This document shows positions 5,010 through 13,285 of a stretch of 64,000 nucleotides of DNA, one piece after another; position 1 is the stretch's first letter, and each line of letters opens with the position of its first letter. The notes beneath the pieces were generated by a model, which was given only the letters and a program-made list of their open reading frames with translations, ran no database searches and was not told the DNA's origin. Origin of the DNA: a virus; the IMG/VR virus record IMGVR_UViG_3300036770_007034, positions 1 through 64,000 of that record. One strand, given 5' to 3'. The translations under genes and the position numbers were made by a program.

Positions 5010-7382
5010 CTAGTTCATGCTGGTTCTCAGTATCTTGGTACTGATATCATTGTTGGTGCGCATGAGGCTTACCAATTCATTGAGGCTGGAGATCTGCTGA
5101 TTCATCACGTCCAGTTGCTGACCAATCTTGTCAGTCATTCCGGTCATTTCCACAGGAATGCTACGTCCATTGGGCAAGGGCACTATGGCCTCTGTGCCAT
5201 GCAACATGGCGGTATATCCTGAACGAGGACCCGATGAGATGCCACCGTATTGATATCCTCGGCCGCCTGTAATCTGATCAAAATGGCTGCGCAGTTGCGC
5301 GGCTGTGCTGTATCTTTCCAGCCCATTTTTGGCTAACCAATCTCTTGGTACCAATCTACTCAGCGGTGTGGATCCCGGAGCTTCCAGTATCTTGGCAGCG
5401 GTACCATAGCCCATCATGTGCGCCATGTACTTGGCGGCATCGGATGTGCTGAGTCCTCTGCGAGCCAGCAGTTGTTCGTTGCTGGATGTGAGCTGTTTCA
5501 TGGCCTCAGTCTGCAGATTGACATCAGCTTTCATGTCCTCAAAGGTTTTGCCTTTGAGAGGACTGCCTGGACCTGCGTTGGCTACCAGGCTTTCAAAAGT
5601 ACCTTTGGTAATCTGGTAAAGTCCAAAAGCCGAAGTAGCTTGTTGACCAGCACGAGCCTGATTACCTATATTCCTGCCACCGCTTTCTAATTGTGCTATA
5701 CGACTGAGATAATCTCCTGATGCGCCTGTACCGCCTTGACCAAATGGTCGACCGGTGGTGCCAAATGCTGGAGCTCCCGGGCTTTGGCCAGTACCACCAC
5801 CGCTGACAGCGATACCTTGATTTTTGAGTTCAACATTCAGTTTGTCATTGATATAATTGATACTCTTGCTAAGAGCCCTGGTAAACATCTCTACATGACC
5901 AGCGGCATTGGGCAATACCTTGCTGACTACTAATTTGTCTAGCTGTTGTGCAAAGTTCTGTAGATTCTTCTGTGCTTTTACTGTTTCTTCTGTGAGTTTG
6001 TCCTGCGCACCCTGGGCACCTTGTTGTTCTTTTTTAGCCGCTTCTAGACCTTCGGCGGTCTGTGCCACACCACTGCGGAAACGGAAGATATCATTGTACA
6101 TGCCATCATACACGGTACCTAGCTTACCAAGACGTGCTTGTATCTCTGGTCTCAGAGCTGCGTTCTGATCCAGCGCCATGCGCACTCGAGCTATAGCTTC
6201 TTCCTGGGTGATGCGATTGTTGTAAAGATCTCGGGCGATCTGCGGGCCAAGGCCTCCGGTGGCTATAGCAAACGCTTTTGATGCTTCGGTGGCCGTGTTG
6301 GTCATGGCATCCGCAAAGCCTTCGCTCAGCGTGCGTCCACCACGTTTCTCTAGATATCCAACTGTGCCTTCGATCTGCCTGACGAGATCTTCGCCACCTC
6401 GGGCCATGGCCACTTGTTTCTGCGCCTGCAGACGTATGTCGGCGTTCTGTCGTTCTATCTCGGCCTGTATTTCGGTTCTTTGAGCTCCTGTGAGTCTGGC
6501 CAGCTCGTCGATGTTTTCGATGTATCGTTTGGCAGATTCAGCCAGAGCGTTCTGATCCGTGAGTTGCATGCGCAGGATCAGTCGATTCTGATTCAGGAAC
6601 TTGGCATAGAACTCTCTTTGTTCTGAAAATCCAATGCCCATCTTGAGGAATTGGTCTTCAAATTTTACAGAAGCTTCGGAAAGTCCAGTCAAGGCTTTAG
6701 CACCTTGCAGGGTAGTACCACCCACAGCTGCCAAGGCTTCGCCGTTCCTGACCACTATAGCAGAAAACTGCTCCATGCTGAGGCCAGAACGGACGGCCAT
6801 GTTAGCAAAGCCCTGCATGCCCTCAGCACCAATGGCACCTGCGCTTGCTACTTGTTGGAAAGCAGTGACCGCACGTTGCAGTTCACCTGTGACAAACGTG
6901 CCGTATTCAGCAAGGAGCTTTCCGGATTCCTCGCCAAAGGCTTTTATCGCACCGCCTAAGCCTTTGACCAGGGTTCCTGTGACCAGTCCTATGACAGCAC
7001 CACCAGGGCCAAACATCAATCCTGCGCCAGAGATGGCTGTGCCAAGCATTTCTACTGCTGAACCTACTGTTTTGGCACCTTTGCCAAAGACCACACCAGT
7101 GGAACGTATGGCAGGATTTAGGCTAGTGAAATCTTCTCTGTTGGCACGAGCTTGCTGGGCGCTGTCAAGGAAACCGCCTATGACCTGCTTGGTAGTGTCA
7201 TAGAGCTTTTTGAAACCTTTTTCGGTGTCATCAATGGCTTTGGCCTGACCTTGCTGTGCGGCTGTGTTGGCCGCGGTGGCCTGATTGAGTTTGGCAAAAG
7301 TCTGAGCCGTGACTACACCCTGGCGGCGCAGTTCGTCCAGAGCCTCTCGCAATAGTTGTGCTGATCTTTCTAATTCGTCCAT
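5010..7382 (-). CDS. Tape-measure-like tail protein with C-terminal lytic transglycosylase (lysozyme-like) domain
   Basis: 790 aa, A/G/Q-rich helical with a hydrophobic Gly-rich segment. C-terminal 'IAQLESGG...AFGLYQIT...YMAHMMG' matches SLT-type motifs including the catalytic Glu. Confidence 0.75.
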   Translation of the reverse strand: MDELERSAQLLREALDELRRQGVVTAQTFAKLNQATAANTAAQQGQAKAIDDTEKGFKKLYDTTKQVIGGFLDSAQQARANREDFTSLNPAIRSTGVVFGKGAKTVGSAVEMLGTAISGAGLMFGPGGAVIGLVTGTLVKGLGGAIKAFGEESGKLLAEYGTFVTGELQRAVTAFQQVASAGAIGAEGMQGFANMAVRSGLSMEQFSAIVVRNGEALAAVGGTTLQGAKALTGLSEASVKFEDQFLKMGIGFSEQREFYAKFLNQNRLILRMQLTDQNALAESAKRYIENIDELARLTGAQRTEIQAEIERQNADIRLQAQKQVAMARGGEDLVRQIEGTVGYLEKRGGRTLSEGFADAMTNTATEASKAFAIATGGLGPQIARDLYNNRITQEEAIARVRMALDQNAALRPEIQARLGKLGTVYDGMYNDIFRFRSGVAQTAEGLEAAKKEQQGAQGAQDKLTEETVKAQKNLQNFAQQLDKLVVSKVLPNAAGHVEMFTRALSKSINYINDKLNVELKNQGIAVSGGGTGQSPGAPAFGTTGRPFGQGGTGASGDYLSRIAQLESGGRNIGNQARAGQQATSAFGLYQITKGTFESLVANAGPGSPLKGKTFEDMKADVNLQTEAMKQLTSSNEQLLARRGLSTSDAAKYMAHMMGYGTAAKILEAPGSTPLSRLVPRDWLAKNGLERYSTAAQLRSHFDQITGGRGYQYGGISSGPRSGYTAMLHGTEAIVPLPNGRSIPVEMTGMTDKIGQQLDVMNQQISSLNELVSLMRTNNDISTKILRTSMN

Positions 7383-7392
7383 AATCTACGCC

Positions 7393-7417
7393 GATAAGTA
7401 CTGCATCTATATTTATG
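7393..7417. promoter_or_regulatory. Interleaved divergent late promoters (GATAAGTA +, CATAAATA -)
   Basis: GATAAGTA at 7393-7400 on +, and TATTTATG at 7410-7417 (CATAAATA on -), in the 46 bp gap between divergent genes. Confidence 0.55.
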
Positions 7418-7428
7418 GTGACCAAAAC

Positions 7429-8277
7429 ATGCCAGAAAATGCCAATCCGCTGAAGCGATTCTTCCGCCAACCAGCGATCTATATCAAGCTGCCTTCGGGC
7501 GGCCAACACTGGGCCCCAGGTTCACTGGAGATGCCTCAGAACGGTGAACTTGCCGTTTATCCCATGACTGCCATGGACGAGATCACATATCGTACCGCAG
7601 ATGCTCTGTTCAATGGCCAGGCCGTGGTCAGTGTAGTGCAGAGTTGTGTGCCTGCTATCAAAAATGCCTGGCACATACCCAGCATGGACCTTGATACCAT
7701 CCTAGTCGGCATACGTATTGCCAGCTATGGACACGAGATGCAGTTTGATTCAGACTGCCCGCATTGCCAACAAGAAAACACCTTTGGTCTGGATCTGCGC
7801 ACCATCATGGATGGCATCCGGGCACCGGACTACACACAGACCATACGAGCCGGGGATCTTGAGCTGTATTTCAAACCTTTGGACTACGAACAGATCAATC
7901 GCAATGCCATGGTGCAGTTTGAAGATCAGAAGCTCCTGGAGATGTTGCCCAGAGCCGAGATGGCCGAAGAAGAAAAAGTGCAGAGACTCACGGCAGCATT
8001 CCTCAAACTCACGGACATGACTATGGGAGCACTAAGCCAGAGCATTGCCATGATCCGGGCAGACACCGAAGTGGTCACTGACGCTGATCACATCGAAGAA
8101 TTCGTAAAGAACTGCGATCGCGATGTGTTCGAACGCATACGCAATCATATAGTAGATATCCGAGAGCAGAGCGAACTCAAACCTTTGAAGATACGCTGTC
8201 AGAATCCCGAATGCCAGAAAGAATACGAAACACCGTTTACATTGGATGTCTCAAATTTTTTCGCATCCGCCTCCTGA
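7429..8277 (+). CDS. gp26: Baseplate hub assembly protein, gp26-like
   Basis: Start moved to ATG 7429 (MPENANPL). Motifs 'YIKLPSG', 'PMTAMDE', 'DLDTILVGIRIASYG', CPHC and C..PEC zinc pairs, C-terminal 'SNFF'. Confidence 0.8.
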   Translation: MPENANPLKRFFRQPAIYIKLPSGGQHWAPGSLEMPQNGELAVYPMTAMDEITYRTADALFNGQAVVSVVQSCVPAIKNAWHIPSMDLDTILVGIRIASYGHEMQFDSDCPHCQQENTFGLDLRTIMDGIRAPDYTQTIRAGDLELYFKPLDYEQINRNAMVQFEDQKLLEMLPRAEMAEEEKVQRLTAAFLKLTDMTMGALSQSIAMIRADTEVVTDADHIEEFVKNCDRDVFERIRNHIVDIREQSELKPLKIRCQNPECQKEYETPFTLDVSNFFASAS

Positions 8278-8992: not shown

Positions 8993-9429
8993 GTTATCAA
9001 TTTGCTCGCATCGATCTTGCCAAGACCACTTACACAGAATCCGTGAAGTGGACTTATCTCAGTAAAACCGATTGGCAAATCAACAAATGCCTGGACATCT
9101 ATCGCACCTACTGCATCTACAAACATTTCAGTTCAGTGATGCCTATATTCACTTCGAGATTCCGCGATCCCATGGCCGATGTGATAGGCTACTATGATGG
9201 TGGCAATATGGTAGCGTTCAGCCTCATACGCAGATATGATGACAAGAATGCCATCTGCGATCAGTTCGCATGGACATACCATGACCCTAAATTACGATTA
9301 GGAATCGAAACTATGAAAACAGAGTGTGCCATATACAAGGCTCGAGGTTTTGACTATCTCTATCTCGAACAAGCACATCTCTACAAACAAGAGATAGAGG
9401 GATTTGAAATACTAGGACCAATGACATGA
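8989..9429 (+). CDS. GNAT-fold protein resembling the C-terminal domain of arginyl/leucyl-tRNA-protein transferase (ATE1/Bpt)
   Basis: 'GYYDGGNMVAFS...YHDPKLRLGIETMKTECAIYKARGFDYLYL' parallels the ATE_C pattern 'Y..GKL.AV...YDPD....SLG...I...I......G..YLYLG'. Confidence 0.6.
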   Translation: MSYQFARIDLAKTTYTESVKWTYLSKTDWQINKCLDIYRTYCIYKHFSSVMPIFTSRFRDPMADVIGYYDGGNMVAFSLIRRYDDKNAICDQFAWTYHDPKLRLGIETMKTECAIYKARGFDYLYLEQAHLYKQEIEGFEILGPMT

Positions 9430-9761
9430 GCGACTTATACACTATCTGGGCAGACAAAGAAGGCGATATCTCTGATATTGATTGGGTAAATGGCATGAAG
9501 AGATTCTTTGATCATTTGATCTCAGAGGACAAGATGATTACCTACAGGATCACACGATGCAAGATGGGATTCCGGAGCATCGCCAACATGCCGGAATGGA
9601 TGATCATCATGGAGTTTGAAGATATGGCACAGATGGAGAGAGCGTTCCAGCGTGTGGCCAAGAAACAAGGAGAACTCGAAGAGAAACATCAGAGCTTCAA
9701 TCAGTTTGTTTCGGGCAACATCCAGCATGCACTATTTCGTGATTGGCCCGATCAGCTTTGA
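9426..9761 (+). CDS. Dimeric alpha-beta barrel-like protein (DUF6614-like)
   Basis: 111 aa, 'YRITRCKMGF...EWMIIMEFEDMAQMERAF' ferredoxin-like pattern; ATGA coupled. Confidence 0.55.
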   Translation: MSDLYTIWADKEGDISDIDWVNGMKRFFDHLISEDKMITYRITRCKMGFRSIANMPEWMIIMEFEDMAQMERAFQRVAKKQGELEEKHQSFNQFVSGNIQHALFRDWPDQL

Positions 9762-9769
9762 GTCTTAGG

Positions 9770-10198
9770 AGAACTTCTACGAAGTTCTATTCATTTCGCT
9801 TCGCTCATGAATGATTGTTTTTACTAAAACGAGCGAAGCGAGTATCCAGTATCATCCAGATGTAATGGTCACACTTAGCCCGTTTCCGGGCTAAGAAGCG
9901 TTTAGCATCATCCGAGTGCTAACAGTCACACAGCGTTATGGCATTACAGAGGCGGTCGTCCGGTACCTCGAGCCACGTCTTATTACGACGGCGGTTAGTA
10001 AATGTACGCTATCACACATACTAACGTGCAGGTTTTCCCTGCTCTTTTTTGCCTTTTGTTATCTGTTCAAACAACCAAACCGCGGCATTTTGCGATCTTC
10101 GTCCTGTAAAGGATAGTGGTTGAGTGCTCGCTGGCGCGGCGAGGCTTCCATCCCTGTGATCCGTGATCCAGGTCTAGGACACCCGATTTTGGCCGGTG
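9770..10198 (-). ncRNA. Candidate large structured non-coding RNA (~430 nt), no recognised family
   Basis: More than 10 helices found by eye, e.g. CTTAGCCCG-GAAA-CGGGCTAAG, GCAGG-GAAAA-CCTGC, GTTAGTA..TACTAAC, TTAGCA..TGCTAA, CAACCA..TGGTTG, TGTAATG..CATTACA, TCGCTTCGCTC/GAGCGAAGCGA, AGAACTTC/GAAGTTCT. It is the longest non-coding gap in the window. Confidence 0.7.
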
Positions 10199-10639
10199 TT
10201 AGCCGTTGCTGCCTAGTTTGCCTTTGATATGTGAGCCATGTACTCGAACCTGTATGTGACCATTGTAGTATTCGTCTGATTCCAGTACCCTGCGGGCGAA
10301 TTGTTCTCGAGCCTCTATGTAACTGCATTCAGCCTTGCTTCGGCAGTAATACAATATCTCGCGTGTGAAATTCTCTATGCCTAATGCTTCTACGTCTCGA
10401 GTGAGTTCCGGGCTTGATCCATAGTAGGTCTGCCAGTCACTTTCAATCTTGCCTCTGATCTTCTTGCGCTTCTTCTTGCCGTTCTTGAGTTTTACTGTCT
10501 TGTACGTGGTCTTGCTAAACTTTGATAATTTTTTGCCAATATATTTCCTGCCAGTTTGTTTATTGGTTATGAGATAAACAAATCCAGCATATTCTTCGGG
10601 TATTTCTGTGATTTCTTGAGATTCGTACAGCCATGTCAT
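10199..10639 (-). CDS. Small GIY-YIG endonuclease (Seg/EndoII-like)
   Basis: 'GFVYLITNKQTGRKYIGKK', 'YYGSS', catalytic E in 'YIEAREQF', 'YYN'. Lysine-rich insertion KTVKLKNGKKKRKKIR. Confidence 0.88.
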   Translation of the reverse strand: MTWLYESQEITEIPEEYAGFVYLITNKQTGRKYIGKKLSKFSKTTYKTVKLKNGKKKRKKIRGKIESDWQTYYGSSPELTRDVEALGIENFTREILYYCRSKAECSYIEAREQFARRVLESDEYYNGHIQVRVHGSHIKGKLGSNG

Positions 10640-10662
10640 TGATCATATAGTTACCTAAAATG

Positions 10663-11541
10663 TCATTTCAGTTCAATATTTCGTTGCCATTGATTGGTAA
10701 AACTAGTTCCTTCGTCCTTTGATGAGCAATTCCGTTGGCACACCGGCTCTGGATTAGACGTCGTCCAGGACTGTTGTATTTCAACAAAATCTACCGGAGC
10801 CTGATGCGCCAAACGATTTCCTAACCAACAACACGGATGCAGTCGGCCATAGGTATCAATATAAGCACTTTTTTCATTTAGAGCATAACAGTTTATCGTC
10901 GTCGATTCCACACGAGGTAGTTGCCAGCCGATAGGATAATCTAATCCTTTCACCGGAGTACGTTTGCTGACTTTGGCCCTGAACCAAGAAAAACCCATCT
11001 TTTGTGCCAATGCTTGGGCTTCGTCAACTTGATGCTGATTGTGTCGATAGATCAGCATGTCCCAATGTGCTTTGCCACCGGCTGCGATAAATGCTTCGGC
11101 ATTGGCCATGACTTTGTCCCAGTTTACATTTACTCGATAGATGGAGTTAGTGTCTTCCAGTCCATCAATGCTGAAAACCACATAATCTTGTTCGCGATTT
11201 ATTATACTACCTAATTCGTGCCACCAAAAAGTACTTTGTAATCCTCCATTGGAGTTCATGCCCAGTATGATATCAGGATTGATTTCACGGAATGCACGAT
11301 AGATATCCAAGGTATAATAACCTGCAGCCGGATCACCATAGTTGCCGCACATATACATCTTGTCAAGAGATCTGATTTGATCTTCATCGAACACATGCAG
11401 GATCTGATCCATAGTGAGATGATGGCGATACTTGGGATCAAATTCAGGATTGATCTCTCGGGGACACAACGGACAGGCAGCCTGGCACACATCGGTGCTC
11501 TCTAGATGCAGGACTTGGATTTCACGCGACATCGACATCAT
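10663..11541 (-). CDS. Radical SAM enzyme with C-terminal twitch/SPASM cysteines
   Basis: CQAACPLC (CxxxCxxC), 'GNYGDP', 'FSIDG', C-terminal 'CYAL..YIDTYGRLHPCCW...CQRNC'. Start probably 11541 or 11532. Confidence 0.88.
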   Translation of the reverse strand: MMSMSREIQVLHLESTDVCQAACPLCPREINPEFDPKYRHHLTMDQILHVFDEDQIRSLDKMYMCGNYGDPAAGYYTLDIYRAFREINPDIILGMNSNGGLQSTFWWHELGSIINREQDYVVFSIDGLEDTNSIYRVNVNWDKVMANAEAFIAAGGKAHWDMLIYRHNQHQVDEAQALAQKMGFSWFRAKVSKRTPVKGLDYPIGWQLPRVESTTINCYALNEKSAYIDTYGRLHPCCWLGNRLAHQAPVDFVEIQQSWTTSNPEPVCQRNCSSKDEGTSFTNQWQRNIELK

Positions 11542-13285
11542 TGTTGTATGAAGTGAATCCGCCTTCCTTGACCACACGCAAGATGTTTTCCACTCGCCCG
11601 GCCAGTTCATCTCTGTGGCTGACAAGCCAGATCGATTTGTTGCGTTCCCGGCTCATCTTCTTCAGTAGGGCCAGCGAGTTTTCGACACCTTGTGTGTCCA
11701 TGCCCGAGTCGACCAGTTCATCAATGAATAGCACATTGATAGGATGATACAGGCTTTCCCACACATCACGGAAGGCCCAACTCATGCTCAGGATCAATCT
11801 GTTGCGTTCACCGCGACTGAGATTATCAAAATCAAGATCTCTTCCTAGTTCGGTGATCTCTACCGTGAGATCATTCTGGAATATGACCTGATGTGGCAGG
11901 CCAATGCGATCCAGATAATGTGTGAGTCGGTTGTTGAGATAGGAAAGATTCTGCTCGATGATCTTTTTCCTGATGAACGAATCTTTGTTGGTTAGCAGTT
12001 TGAGCAGGAAGTCTTGATGCTCAAATACTCTGGTGAGTTCGTTTACAGTATCATACGTGACTTCCTGCAAGGCCTGTCCACGCATGTCATCGATCTGTTC
12101 GGTGTAGGGATCGGTCTCTGCGGATCTGTTGGCTAAGTCTTTCCTCAATCCATCCAAGCTGTTCTTGTGATTGAGTGCTTGTTCGAGATCATCATAGAAT
12201 ACTGTAGGGGCTGTGCCCAGTTCACCAAGATCGTCGATCTCATTGAGGTGTTCGTGCCGTTGTGTATCATTGCTCAACAGTTGCAAGGAGATCTCTTGCA
12301 GATTCTTTTGCTTCTCTGCTAGGATCTCGTCCTGCTTTGAGTCATGTAATTCTTGCCCGCAGGCATGACAACGATGCTCTTTCAGCGCATCGATATCCTT
12401 CTTGAGTTTGGCACTGTCTTTTTCTAGTTTCGAATTGTCTTGATCGATCTGTCGGATCCATTTCTGATGCTCGTCGATCTGTTTTTTCTTGAGATGATAG
12501 GCTTCGAGATCTCTGTGTGCTTGTACTTCGGCCTCGATGTCGATGTGTTCTAGGGCAGATATAGCAGTTTCAAAGCCTTTGACATCCTCGGCTTGTTTGT
12601 TGAGCCAGAGAGTGCGACGCTTTTCCAAGCTGGCGATCTGTTCTTCGATCCGCTTGTTAGCCTCCTGGACCGCTCGGATGCGCATTTCTTCTTGGCTGAT
12701 AGCATCCTTGGTAGCACGGTTTAGTTCTTTGATTTTCTCAGCACGTTCAGAAAGCAAGGTGATACCCAGCAGTTGCTCGATGATGGCACGCTGGTCGTTG
12801 GCCTTGAGACTCAGGAACGGTTCGGTGTAGGTGTTGAGCGCCAGGATGTGTTTGAACATATCGTGGGTCATGCCCAGGATCGACTCTATGGCTTCTTGTG
12901 TTTCTCGGCTGTCGCCTTGTGCATCATCTGTGGCTTGTTGTTCTTCATTATTGACATAAAACTTGAGAACATTGGGTTTGCGACCACGTTCCACGCGGTA
13001 GTCTTGCCCATTCACTGAAAAGTCAAGACTCACCAACATGGCTTTGCCATTGGTCTTGTTGATGAGATTATCTCTACGGATGTTAGTGAGTGCTTGACCG
13101 TACAGGGCATAACTGAGCGCATTGATGATGGTGGTCTTGCCTGTACCGTTCCTGCTACCATCTCCGCCAAGATCCAAGTTCTCACCCAGGACCAAGGTAA
13201 GATCTCGTCGATCAAAATTTACACCTTGCGTAGCATTGCCCACGCTCATGAAGTTTTTGACTGTGAGATCTTTTATTTGGATCAT
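11522..13285 (-). CDS. gp46: Recombination ATPase gp46 (SbcC/Rad50)
   Basis: Walker A 'NGTGKTT', zinc hook 'CHAC', signature 'LSRGE', Walker B 'LFIDE', H-loop 'VSH'. Confidence 0.96.
   Translation of the reverse strand: MIQIKDLTVKNFMSVGNATQGVNFDRRDLTLVLGENLDLGGDGSRNGTGKTTIINALSYALYGQALTNIRRDNLINKTNGKAMLVSLDFSVNGQDYRVERGRKPNVLKFYVNNEEQQATDDAQGDSRETQEAIESILGMTHDMFKHILALNTYTEPFLSLKANDQRAIIEQLLGITLLSERAEKIKELNRATKDAISQEEMRIRAVQEANKRIEEQIASLEKRRTLWLNKQAEDVKGFETAISALEHIDIEAEVQAHRDLEAYHLKKKQIDEHQKWIRQIDQDNSKLEKDSAKLKKDIDALKEHRCHACGQELHDSKQDEILAEKQKNLQEISLQLLSNDTQRHEHLNEIDDLGELGTAPTVFYDDLEQALNHKNSLDGLRKDLANRSAETDPYTEQIDDMRGQALQEVTYDTVNELTRVFEHQDFLLKLLTNKDSFIRKKIIEQNLSYLNNRLTHYLDRIGLPHQVIFQNDLTVEITELGRDLDFDNLSRGERNRLILSMSWAFRDVWESLYHPINVLFIDELVDSGMDTQGVENSLALLKKMSRERNKSIWLVSHRDELAGRVENILRVVKEGGFTSYNNDVDVA

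Follow-up and report, generated by a model that had tools for sequence, protein, structure and literature searches.

A candidate large phage RNA that contains Polynucleobacter-1 and carries one 7-nt word twice, downstream of a GIY-YIG gene

What is encoded by the largest gap between genes in a phage genome, when that gap starts at the stop codon of a small GIY-YIG nuclease gene? The locus lies in a stretch of 64,000 nucleotides (nt), called the window here, which is positions 1 to 64,000 of the IMG/VR virus record IMGVR_UViG_3300036770_007034 (87,059 bases; CheckV completeness 23%). In a crude greedy tiling with open reading frames (ORFs) of 70 amino acids (aa) or more, the largest ORF-free gap of the window was 9762-10198 (437 nt), as a preliminary description made from the sequence alone had pointed out. 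That description offered three options for the gap: a nuclease-RNA system, a stand-alone large phage non-coding RNA (ncRNA) and a structured replication origin. The second fits best. The gap is predicted to encode, on the minus strand, a member of a phage large-ncRNA family that is the full-length form of Polynucleobacter-1 (Rfam RF01718). The RNA consists of a 5' domain, which is Polynucleobacter-1 in this phage and folds differently in about a quarter of the relatives, and a conserved 3' domain, which is held by two long-range pseudoknots and presents one 7-nt word twice.

The RNA and its two domains

The minus strand folded at -151.8 kcal/mol (z -5.36), with 0 of 100 dinucleotide shuffles as good, compared with z -3.02 for the plus strand. 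Relatives were collected from IMG/VR by a scan with the nuclease (596 confirmed relatives among 599 matched stretches, the best 80 of which were kept) and by a scan with a 14-nt word of the motif (119 stretches). The window RNA and those of 60 loci were aligned (alignment A1, 61 sequences) and given a curated structure of 95 pairs with three pseudoknots. Standard pairs were formed in 88.1% of cells, compared with 73.3% in column shuffles (0/500 reached the observed value) and 34.6-39.5% when partners were slid by 1-3 columns. Both sides had changed in 69 of the 95 pairs (860 cells), and the covariation score was 0.441, against at most 0.102 for slid partners. The curated structure was drawn in part from the fold of the window itself, which favours the unslid register. 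This bias is unlikely to be the cause of the pairing signal, because an all-against-all column scan independently recovered the Rfam helices, the new 3' helices and the three pseudoknots, and because nearly all column pairs of high mutual information are canonical base pairs. G-U pairs are conserved, such as U-G in 61/61 sequences at alignment columns 302/314; since these are strand-specific, the RNA is placed on the minus strand.

The dense minus-strand fold, the choice of strand and most of the helices of the preliminary description were thus confirmed among relatives. ACACC/GGTGT, CCTGGATC/GATC-CAGG, CTCGC/GCGAG, GTTAGTA/TACTAAC, GAGG/CCTC and the 9-bp hairpin with a GAAA loop are kept, most of them with compensatory changes, and the CAACCA/TGGTTG helix with TCC/GGA inside is present and kept as well. 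Three elements needed adjustment: GCAGG/CCTGC is supported in a register one column off; TTAGCA/TGCTAA exists in the window, in a hairpin too variable among relatives to align; and CGG-ACGA-CCG is a near-invariant stem whose ACGA loop covaries with an upstream GUCGU as a pseudoknot instead. The long-range TGTAATG/CATTACA pairing had to be dropped, its interior pairs being canonical in only 15-31 of the 61 sequences. In the alignment the hairpins P5 and P10 pair poorly (45% and 41%), and both vary in length; P5 is supported one column over, and P10 is seen in the window and unproven beyond it.

The 5' part of the RNA has the following features, RNA position n being window position 10205-n.

9770-10204, minus strand: whole RNA element, from nhmmer conservation, alignment A1 and covariation
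10204-9850 (about RNA 1-355), minus strand: conserved core of the RNA, followed by two variable terminal hairpins
10069-10204, minus strand: 5' domain, RF01718 Polynucleobacter-1, from the Rfam match and compensatory changes
RNA 6-10/22-26 (P1), 34-40/44-51 (P2), 60-66/74-79 (P3), 83-88/128-133 (P4) and 108-113/122-127 (P4b), minus strand: helices of the 5' domain
RNA 1-3/12-14, minus strand: extra 5' pseudoknot outside the Rfam model
10028-10071, minus strand: A-rich linker (RNA 134-162), then the short hairpin P5 (RNA 163-167/173-177), covarying at 3 pairs

RNA 1-136 (window 10204-10069, minus strand) matches RF01718 over model positions 1-141 of 141 without truncation, at 121.1 bits and E 8.9e-26 (gathering score 37 bits). 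It was the sole Rfam family at gathering score within the whole window, and the match overlaps the stop codon of the nuclease gene. In its helices 85-100% of cells are paired, and the pairs changed on both sides are 5/5 in P1, 5/7 in P2, 5/6 in P3, 4/6 in P4 and 2/5 in P4b. For the other ~300 nt there was no Rfam match at E of 1 or less in a search of 9600-10800, save a chance miRNA hit. The expectation of an undescribed RNA therefore holds for these ~300 nt and fails for the first 136 nt.

In the article text of Weinberg et al. 2010 (Genome Biol 11:R31, PMC2864571), Polynucleobacter-1 is listed as a probable RNA and possible cis-regulator, without a function; the table there gives 'Burkholderiales, fresh water/estuary' and rates the motif 'y' for cis-reg and '?' for switch, a possible 5' element. 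As far as that text describes the motif, the RNA of the window agrees with it in the full-model match, in the same four-helix layout and in a compatible habitat. It differs from the published motif in three ways: the motif is just the 5' third of an RNA of 360-435 nt, an extra 5' pseudoknot is present that the Rfam model lacks, and the motif is replaceable by another 5' domain while the 3' domain persists. Placement in a 5' untranslated region (UTR) was not found here, for on the minus strand the motif is followed by ~300 nt of further conserved RNA and then by the end of the convergent gene 9426-9761 (plus strand). This bears on the proposed cis-regulatory role, not on membership of RF01718. 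A literature search that did not reach the supplements of Weinberg 2010 and PMC10690425 returned no account of either the RNA at full length or the twin words. According to its article text, PMC10690425 predicted short phage RNAs (29-151 nt) from IMG/VR and discarded those overlapping Rfam; its supplementary tables may list pieces of the 3' domain.

The 3' domain is mapped below, with its two words and their surroundings given in the next section.

9996-10023, minus strand: P6, an 11-bp hairpin (RNA 182-192/199-209), 10/10 pairs changed on both sides
9930-9936, minus strand: RNA 269-275, forming PK1 with the P6 loop RNA 193-199 (AUAGCGU); 7/7 pairs changed on both sides and 98.6% of cells paired
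9938-9989, minus strand: invariant core, from the invariant columns of alignment A1
RNA 216-220 (GUCGU) with 246-250 (ACGAC), minus strand: PK2, within the invariant core
RNA 229-233/263-267, minus strand: P9
RNA 236-240/252-256, minus strand: P8, enclosing the near-invariant GGUACCGGACRACCGCC
9771-9841, strand not assigned: variable terminal hairpins T1 (RNA 364-374/399-409) and T2 (RNA 418-424/428-434), between convergent operons

In the helices listed for the invariant core (numbered 12-14), pairing stands at 95-97% and both sides have changed in 3, 4 and 2 pairs; T2 covaries at 6/7 pairs.

The RNA element was found over nearly its full length in 76/93 unique sequences downstream of the gene when the window RNA was the single nhmmer query, and by profile in 119/271 sequences. 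It is present downstream of the nuclease gene, on the same strand, in 75/80 nuclease loci; two of the 5 misses end within 166 nt of the gene, and three (L040, L062 and L074) have room yet no match. In 20 of the 75 loci the nhmmer match begins only at about RNA 170-280. Rfam at gathering score gave nothing in the 20 loci tested, which were 17 of the 3'-only loci and the three without any match. When 13 of the 20 3'-only loci were aligned (three duplicates, two contig-end loci and L035/L036, which start later still, were left out), they shared a common and different 5' domain, conserved and with compensatory changes of its own. The Polynucleobacter-1 domain can therefore be exchanged, and the constant core of the RNA is the twin-box domain (about RNA 211-355).

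Some further observations concern the ends and the extent of the family. CAGUAA or a close variant stands directly before RNA position 1 in most of 15 loci whose preceding 60-80 nt were inspected (including L014, L016, L022, L076 and L162), even with a differing upstream gene; the true 5' boundary may lie ~8 nt upstream of the Rfam model start. UAAG at RNA 223-226 (window 9979-9982) can pair with the 5' strand of hairpin P11, CUUA (RNA 310-313), covarying at 2 pairs and mimicking the 3' strand of P11, and column 213 (window 9992) behaves in the same way toward P11 (9874-9895); a base triple or a second, alternative pairing is a possible explanation. An exact 17-mer of the core had 71 matches in a genome collection of 596 billion bases, about the chance number by our own estimate, and two of these were real elements. 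One (L254) is on a 56,750-nt contig of a GTDB metagenome-assembled genome (MAG) labelled Bifidobacterium, with gp46, GIY-YIG and hub genes in phage order; the contig appears to be that of a T4-like phage and to have been binned with bacterial sequence. The other (L212) is on 1,746 nt of a Flavobacteriales MAG.

The twin boxes

The 7-nt word GGAUGAU occurs twice in the 3' domain, in the contexts ACUC-GGAUGAU-G (RNA 288-299) and AUCU-GGAUGAU-A (RNA 344-355), and the two copies change together among relatives.

RNA 274-280, window 9925-9931, minus strand: GUGUGAC copy 1, before twin box 1
RNA 292-298, window 9907-9913, minus strand: twin box 1, GGAUGAU, in the loop of the variable hairpin P10
RNA 310-318/323-331, window 9874-9895, minus strand: P11, 9-bp hairpin with a GAAA loop between the boxes, 95.6% paired with 3 pairs changed on both sides
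RNA 331-337, window 9868-9874, minus strand: GUGUGAC copy 2, before twin box 2
RNA 348-354, window 9851-9857, minus strand: twin box 2, GGAUGAU, 56 nt after box 1

Both boxes could be read in 110 elements and were identical in 107 of them, the 3 exceptions differing by one letter. There are 11 distinct words, of the form [GA][GC]A[UC][GAC]A[UAG], and the word centre reads UGA or UAA in 9/11. Each variable box column has a mutual information of 0.77-1.07 with its twin column and of at most 0.39-0.40 with any other column. On an RNA tree built without the box columns the words underwent at least 27 joint changes, compared with 62-68 in label shuffles (five printed of 200). The spacing of the boxes ranges from 51 to 58 nt, and the duplicated GUGUGAC precedes each box at a similar distance. 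The boxes are coupled by identity and not by complementarity, which is not accounted for by ordinary RNA folding.

Several known uses of such words were considered and rejected. Translational bypass as in T4 gene 60, codon or anticodon mimicry, CsrA sites, k-turn or C/D boxes and a T-box do not fit all 11 words, judged by their consensus sequences. An endless ORF across a tandem 56-nt unit was rejected on the window sequence, which has stops on both strands and a unit length that is no multiple of 3.

The explanation that we regard as probable, with considerable reserve, is that the full-length Polynucleobacter-1 family RNA would be made by read-through of the operon, and perhaps then processed, and that it would act in its own right, not as an obligatory cofactor of the nuclease. 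Its scaffold would offer the two words as a pair of read-out sites to a trans partner encoded elsewhere, present in two copies or having two identical sites. This partner would most likely be a base-pairing nucleic acid or a symmetric protein, which the RNA may sequester or bridge.

The operon end, the nuclease and other readings

The window has a T4-like gene content, with a baseplate hub, a gp46/Rad50-like SMC protein and a radical-SAM protein, and no transfer RNA genes. The genes around the RNA are as follows.

7309-8277, plus strand: baseplate hub gene
9426-9761, plus strand: DUF6614 gene, convergent to the RNA, its end bounding the gap
10199-10639, minus strand: 146-aa GIY-YIG-only protein with a SegE-type domain (ORF and Pfam), its stop codon overlapping RNA positions 4-6
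10663-11625, minus strand: radical-SAM protein gene
11522-13285, minus strand: gp46/Rad50-like SMC protein gene

The GIY-YIG gene is the final gene of a leftward gp46-(radical SAM)-GIY-YIG operon, and the RNA lies at the junction of convergent operons. The region between gp46 and the GIY-YIG gene is a hot spot of accessory genes, and in some loci so is that between the GIY-YIG gene and the RNA (loci L002-L081). Its radical-SAM protein has an identity among loci of 25% to 63%; L022 has a methyltransferase-like ORF there, as read from its sequence, and other loci have ORFs without an assigned role. Unrelated ORFs of 82-356 aa are inserted between the GIY-YIG gene and the RNA in the 8 loci examined, with 1.8 kb between them in L162. 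Inspection of 15 loci placed the start of the RNA at the stop codon of the final ORF, whichever that may be, or a few bases beyond it, although the sequence farther upstream is unrelated. Promoter-like sites were limited to a weak one upstream of the nuclease gene. Judged from these arrangements the RNA appears to mark the end of the operon and not the nuclease gene, with no evident promoter of its own.

Such a position would also suit a cis-acting 3' element, that is, a structured 3' UTR serving as a barrier to 3' exonucleases, as a transcription terminator between the convergent operons, or as the antisense target of plus-strand late-gene read-through. The RNA abuts the last stop codon of the leftward operon, whichever gene that is, at a convergent junction, and two hairpins score as terminator-like on the plus strand: T2 (9770-9788), for the DUF6614 gene, and the P5 hairpin with its T-run (10028-10042). 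However, a stabiliser or a terminator would need far less than ~95 conserved pairs together with three pseudoknots, a 17-nt core that hardly varies and two words that co-evolve, and no U-run follows T1 or T2 on the minus strand, as read from the sequence. We consider a cis-acting role unlikely. At the second site, inside the RNA gene, it is the complement of P5 with TCTTTTTTGC that scores as an intrinsic terminator on the plus strand; read-through of the convergent late operon would run antisense to the whole twin-box domain before reaching it.

The other neighbour of the RNA, the nuclease, was identified by Pfam PF19835 (SegE_GIY-YIG) at E 1.1e-33 and 116.5 bits (cut-off 25), with residues 3-129 covering profile positions 1-123 of 123, and matches phrog_447 at E 1e-37. 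Pfam found no second domain in the 146 aa, in agreement with the preliminary description; the protein is the catalytic domain alone, with no DNA-binding domain. Mean column identity across 32 homologues is 81%, and Y22, Y33-I34-G35, R93, E104/E109/E112 and N126 are invariant in the 32 sequences; some of these residues are presumably catalytic, as in I-TevI. A PDB search with the nuclease gave 0 sequence matches, and the best profile match (E 0.018) was not significant. Homologues of this protein are named 'NAD synthetase' in many cyanophage and rhizobiophage records (such as NC_015287.1 and NC_041929.1) and in phrog_447. This looks like a propagated naming error, because the Pfam match is to a GIY-YIG nuclease domain; a common annotation of GenBank phage records is thereby corrected to a GIY-YIG-only protein.

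The preliminary description put forward a nuclease-RNA system, in which the RNA would be the guide, scaffold or inhibitor of this minimal nuclease. On that reading the boxes would address or regulate the nuclease, in one version by pairing with both strands of a palindromic DNA site. A linkage of gene and RNA is there. Besides the 75/80 close-homologue loci, where two misses are contig ends, the nuclease gene lies immediately upstream, in the same orientation, in 39 of 41 loci found by the RNA pattern alone (of the other two, one is cut by a contig end, and in the second the gene is 1.8 kb upstream). The lack of a DNA-recognition domain, and a protein better conserved than gp46, also suit a nuclease that is served by an RNA. 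The linkage is strong but inseparable from conserved synteny, all of it within one phage clade: the gene was present in 120 loci and stands in the same place in all, with gp46 upstream on the same strand in 96 and hub genes downstream on the other strand in 66-74. Moreover, unrelated ORFs separate the gene and the RNA in at least 8 loci, and the RNA tracks the operon end rather than the gene. GenBank has 447 phage records, most of them of cyanophages, with nuclease homologues of under 60% identity; three cultured phages with such a homologue, Melnitz, P-HM2 and S-SRM01, have no gap of ~400 nt after it, and RF01718 was found in 0/3 of their genomes, compared with 2/2 positive controls, in a search with the 5'-domain model only, which does not cover the 3' domain and the second type of 5' domain. 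As a guide, an address of 7 nt would be very short; a search of 5 phage records gave no second twin or inverted site that is conserved, and avoidance of the word in the phage's own genome was rejected (25 copies, 11-18 expected). A nuclease-RNA system is thus possible but unsupported, and we hold it to be quite unlikely.

A different proposal takes the boxes as two equivalent reaction sites, either two cuts that free a 56-nt hairpin unit, possibly circular, or matching ends for a template-jumping polymerase, for which we take the DRT2 ncRNA and the telomerase template to be analogies. Selected identity of two direct words that flank a unit suits template jumping or a paired cut-and-join, and so does the second duplicated word, GUGUGAC, before each box. 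It is improbable nonetheless, for no reverse transcriptase or ligase gene was seen adjoining the RNA, the box spacing varies, and the unit, whose two strands both contain stop codons in the window, is a hairpin that covaries. More speculative still is a programmable 7-nt address, in which the knotted scaffold would base-pair with two identical sites (the strands of palindromic DNA, or two copies of a host RNA), bridging, sequestering or marking the target, possibly for the GIY-YIG nuclease. If true, lytic phages would have an RNA-addressed activity of a new kind, and the word switches, at least 27 in number, would be the trace of retargeting as hosts or defences changed. Least probable of all is a DNA-level element, either a replication origin with iterons, the third option of the preliminary description, or a homing or recognition site of an endonuclease: direct repeats do lie in an intergenic region beside an endonuclease gene, but there are just two 7-nt repeats, what is conserved is compensatory pairing, including G-U pairs that only one of the strands can explain, and the gene-RNA order is vertically conserved and not patchy. 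A replication origin finds no support in the observations.

The reading of the RNA as a self-standing molecule with twin read-out sites has several points to answer. Its expression, ends and processing are all inferred, as none of the 22 runs listed is an RNA run that contains the stretch. Every instance was found in one syntenic setting (gp46 ... GIY-YIG ... RNA ... baseplate hub), and its independence of the nuclease rests on the insertions and the distant homologues, not on another gene context; the negative result in the three cultured phages has the limit of a 5'-domain model. The nuclease subfamily adjacent to the RNA keeps 69-94% identity where gp46 keeps 55-92%, and this conserved subfamily could have gained an RNA partner that is absent from distant homologues. 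Among nucleases whose RNAs carry different words, the two most similar share 95.8% identity, a figure that leaves the nuclease as a conceivable reader of the words. The trans partner of the boxes is inferred from absence, because no partner was found in the RNA, in the 3-kb flanks or in whole phage records. Within the RNA, the reverse complement of its own word occurred in 0 of 89 unique elements. The 3-kb flanks had 55 reverse-complement matches in 89 loci, compared with 0.41 per locus for other words; a flank partner was rejected, as two clusters are conserved coding motifs that occur with GGATGAT only and do not track the word change. In the 5 phage records, the search for a second twin or inverted site gave two matches, not conserved, and the backwards-read control gave 1; in a 99%-complete phage record of 343,632 nt the twin site is in the RNA alone.

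Known systems and meaning of the RNA

Like GOLLD, ROOL, HEARO, OLE and raiA, the RNA has a large size, a complex pseudoknotted fold, an origin in phages or metagenomes and no known function. In 9600-10800 Rfam gave no match to any of these at E of 1 or less, and none of them is known to carry two co-evolving identical words. The arrangement of a structured RNA beside a small DNA-acting enzyme recalls the omega-RNA of HEARO/IscB, the guide RNAs of TnpB and the IS110 bridge RNA, in which two loops specify DNA sites. In contrast to these systems, the enzyme is GIY-YIG and not RuvC/HNH or DEDD, the RNA is 3' of the gene and may have other genes in between, both sites share one variable part of 7 nt, and the locus is syntenic with no transposon context. 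Membership of HEARO/IscB or TnpB was not found either: the neighbours have no RuvC/HNH-type domain, and there was no Rfam match at E of 1 or less besides RF01718 and the chance miRNA.

A SegE-type GIY-YIG protein, a T4-like phage and an adjoining structured RNA are also what is seen with group I introns that carry GIY-YIG genes and with the free-standing seg genes of T4. No Intron_gpI match was found in the window at gathering score or in 9600-10800 at E of 1 or less, and unlike a group I intron the RNA has no flanking exons; no minus-strand ORF resumes after it, and a convergent gene lies downstream. Unlike the free-standing seg homing endonucleases, the protein has no C-terminal DNA-binding domain and is vertically conserved, not patchy like a selfish gene. 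A type III toxin-antitoxin system (ToxIN-like) was rejected, as there are only two 7-nt words in a non-repetitive scaffold, downstream of a DNA-nuclease-type domain.

Polynucleobacter-1 has been a short orphan Rfam motif since 2010, guessed to be a 5' UTR element; here and in the relatives it is the first third of a triply pseudoknotted phage RNA of 360-435 nt. The uncatalogued 3' domain is the part of the RNA that is always kept, and the signal of the twin words suggests that large freshwater T4-like phages have a specific read-out of this RNA that can be put to the test.

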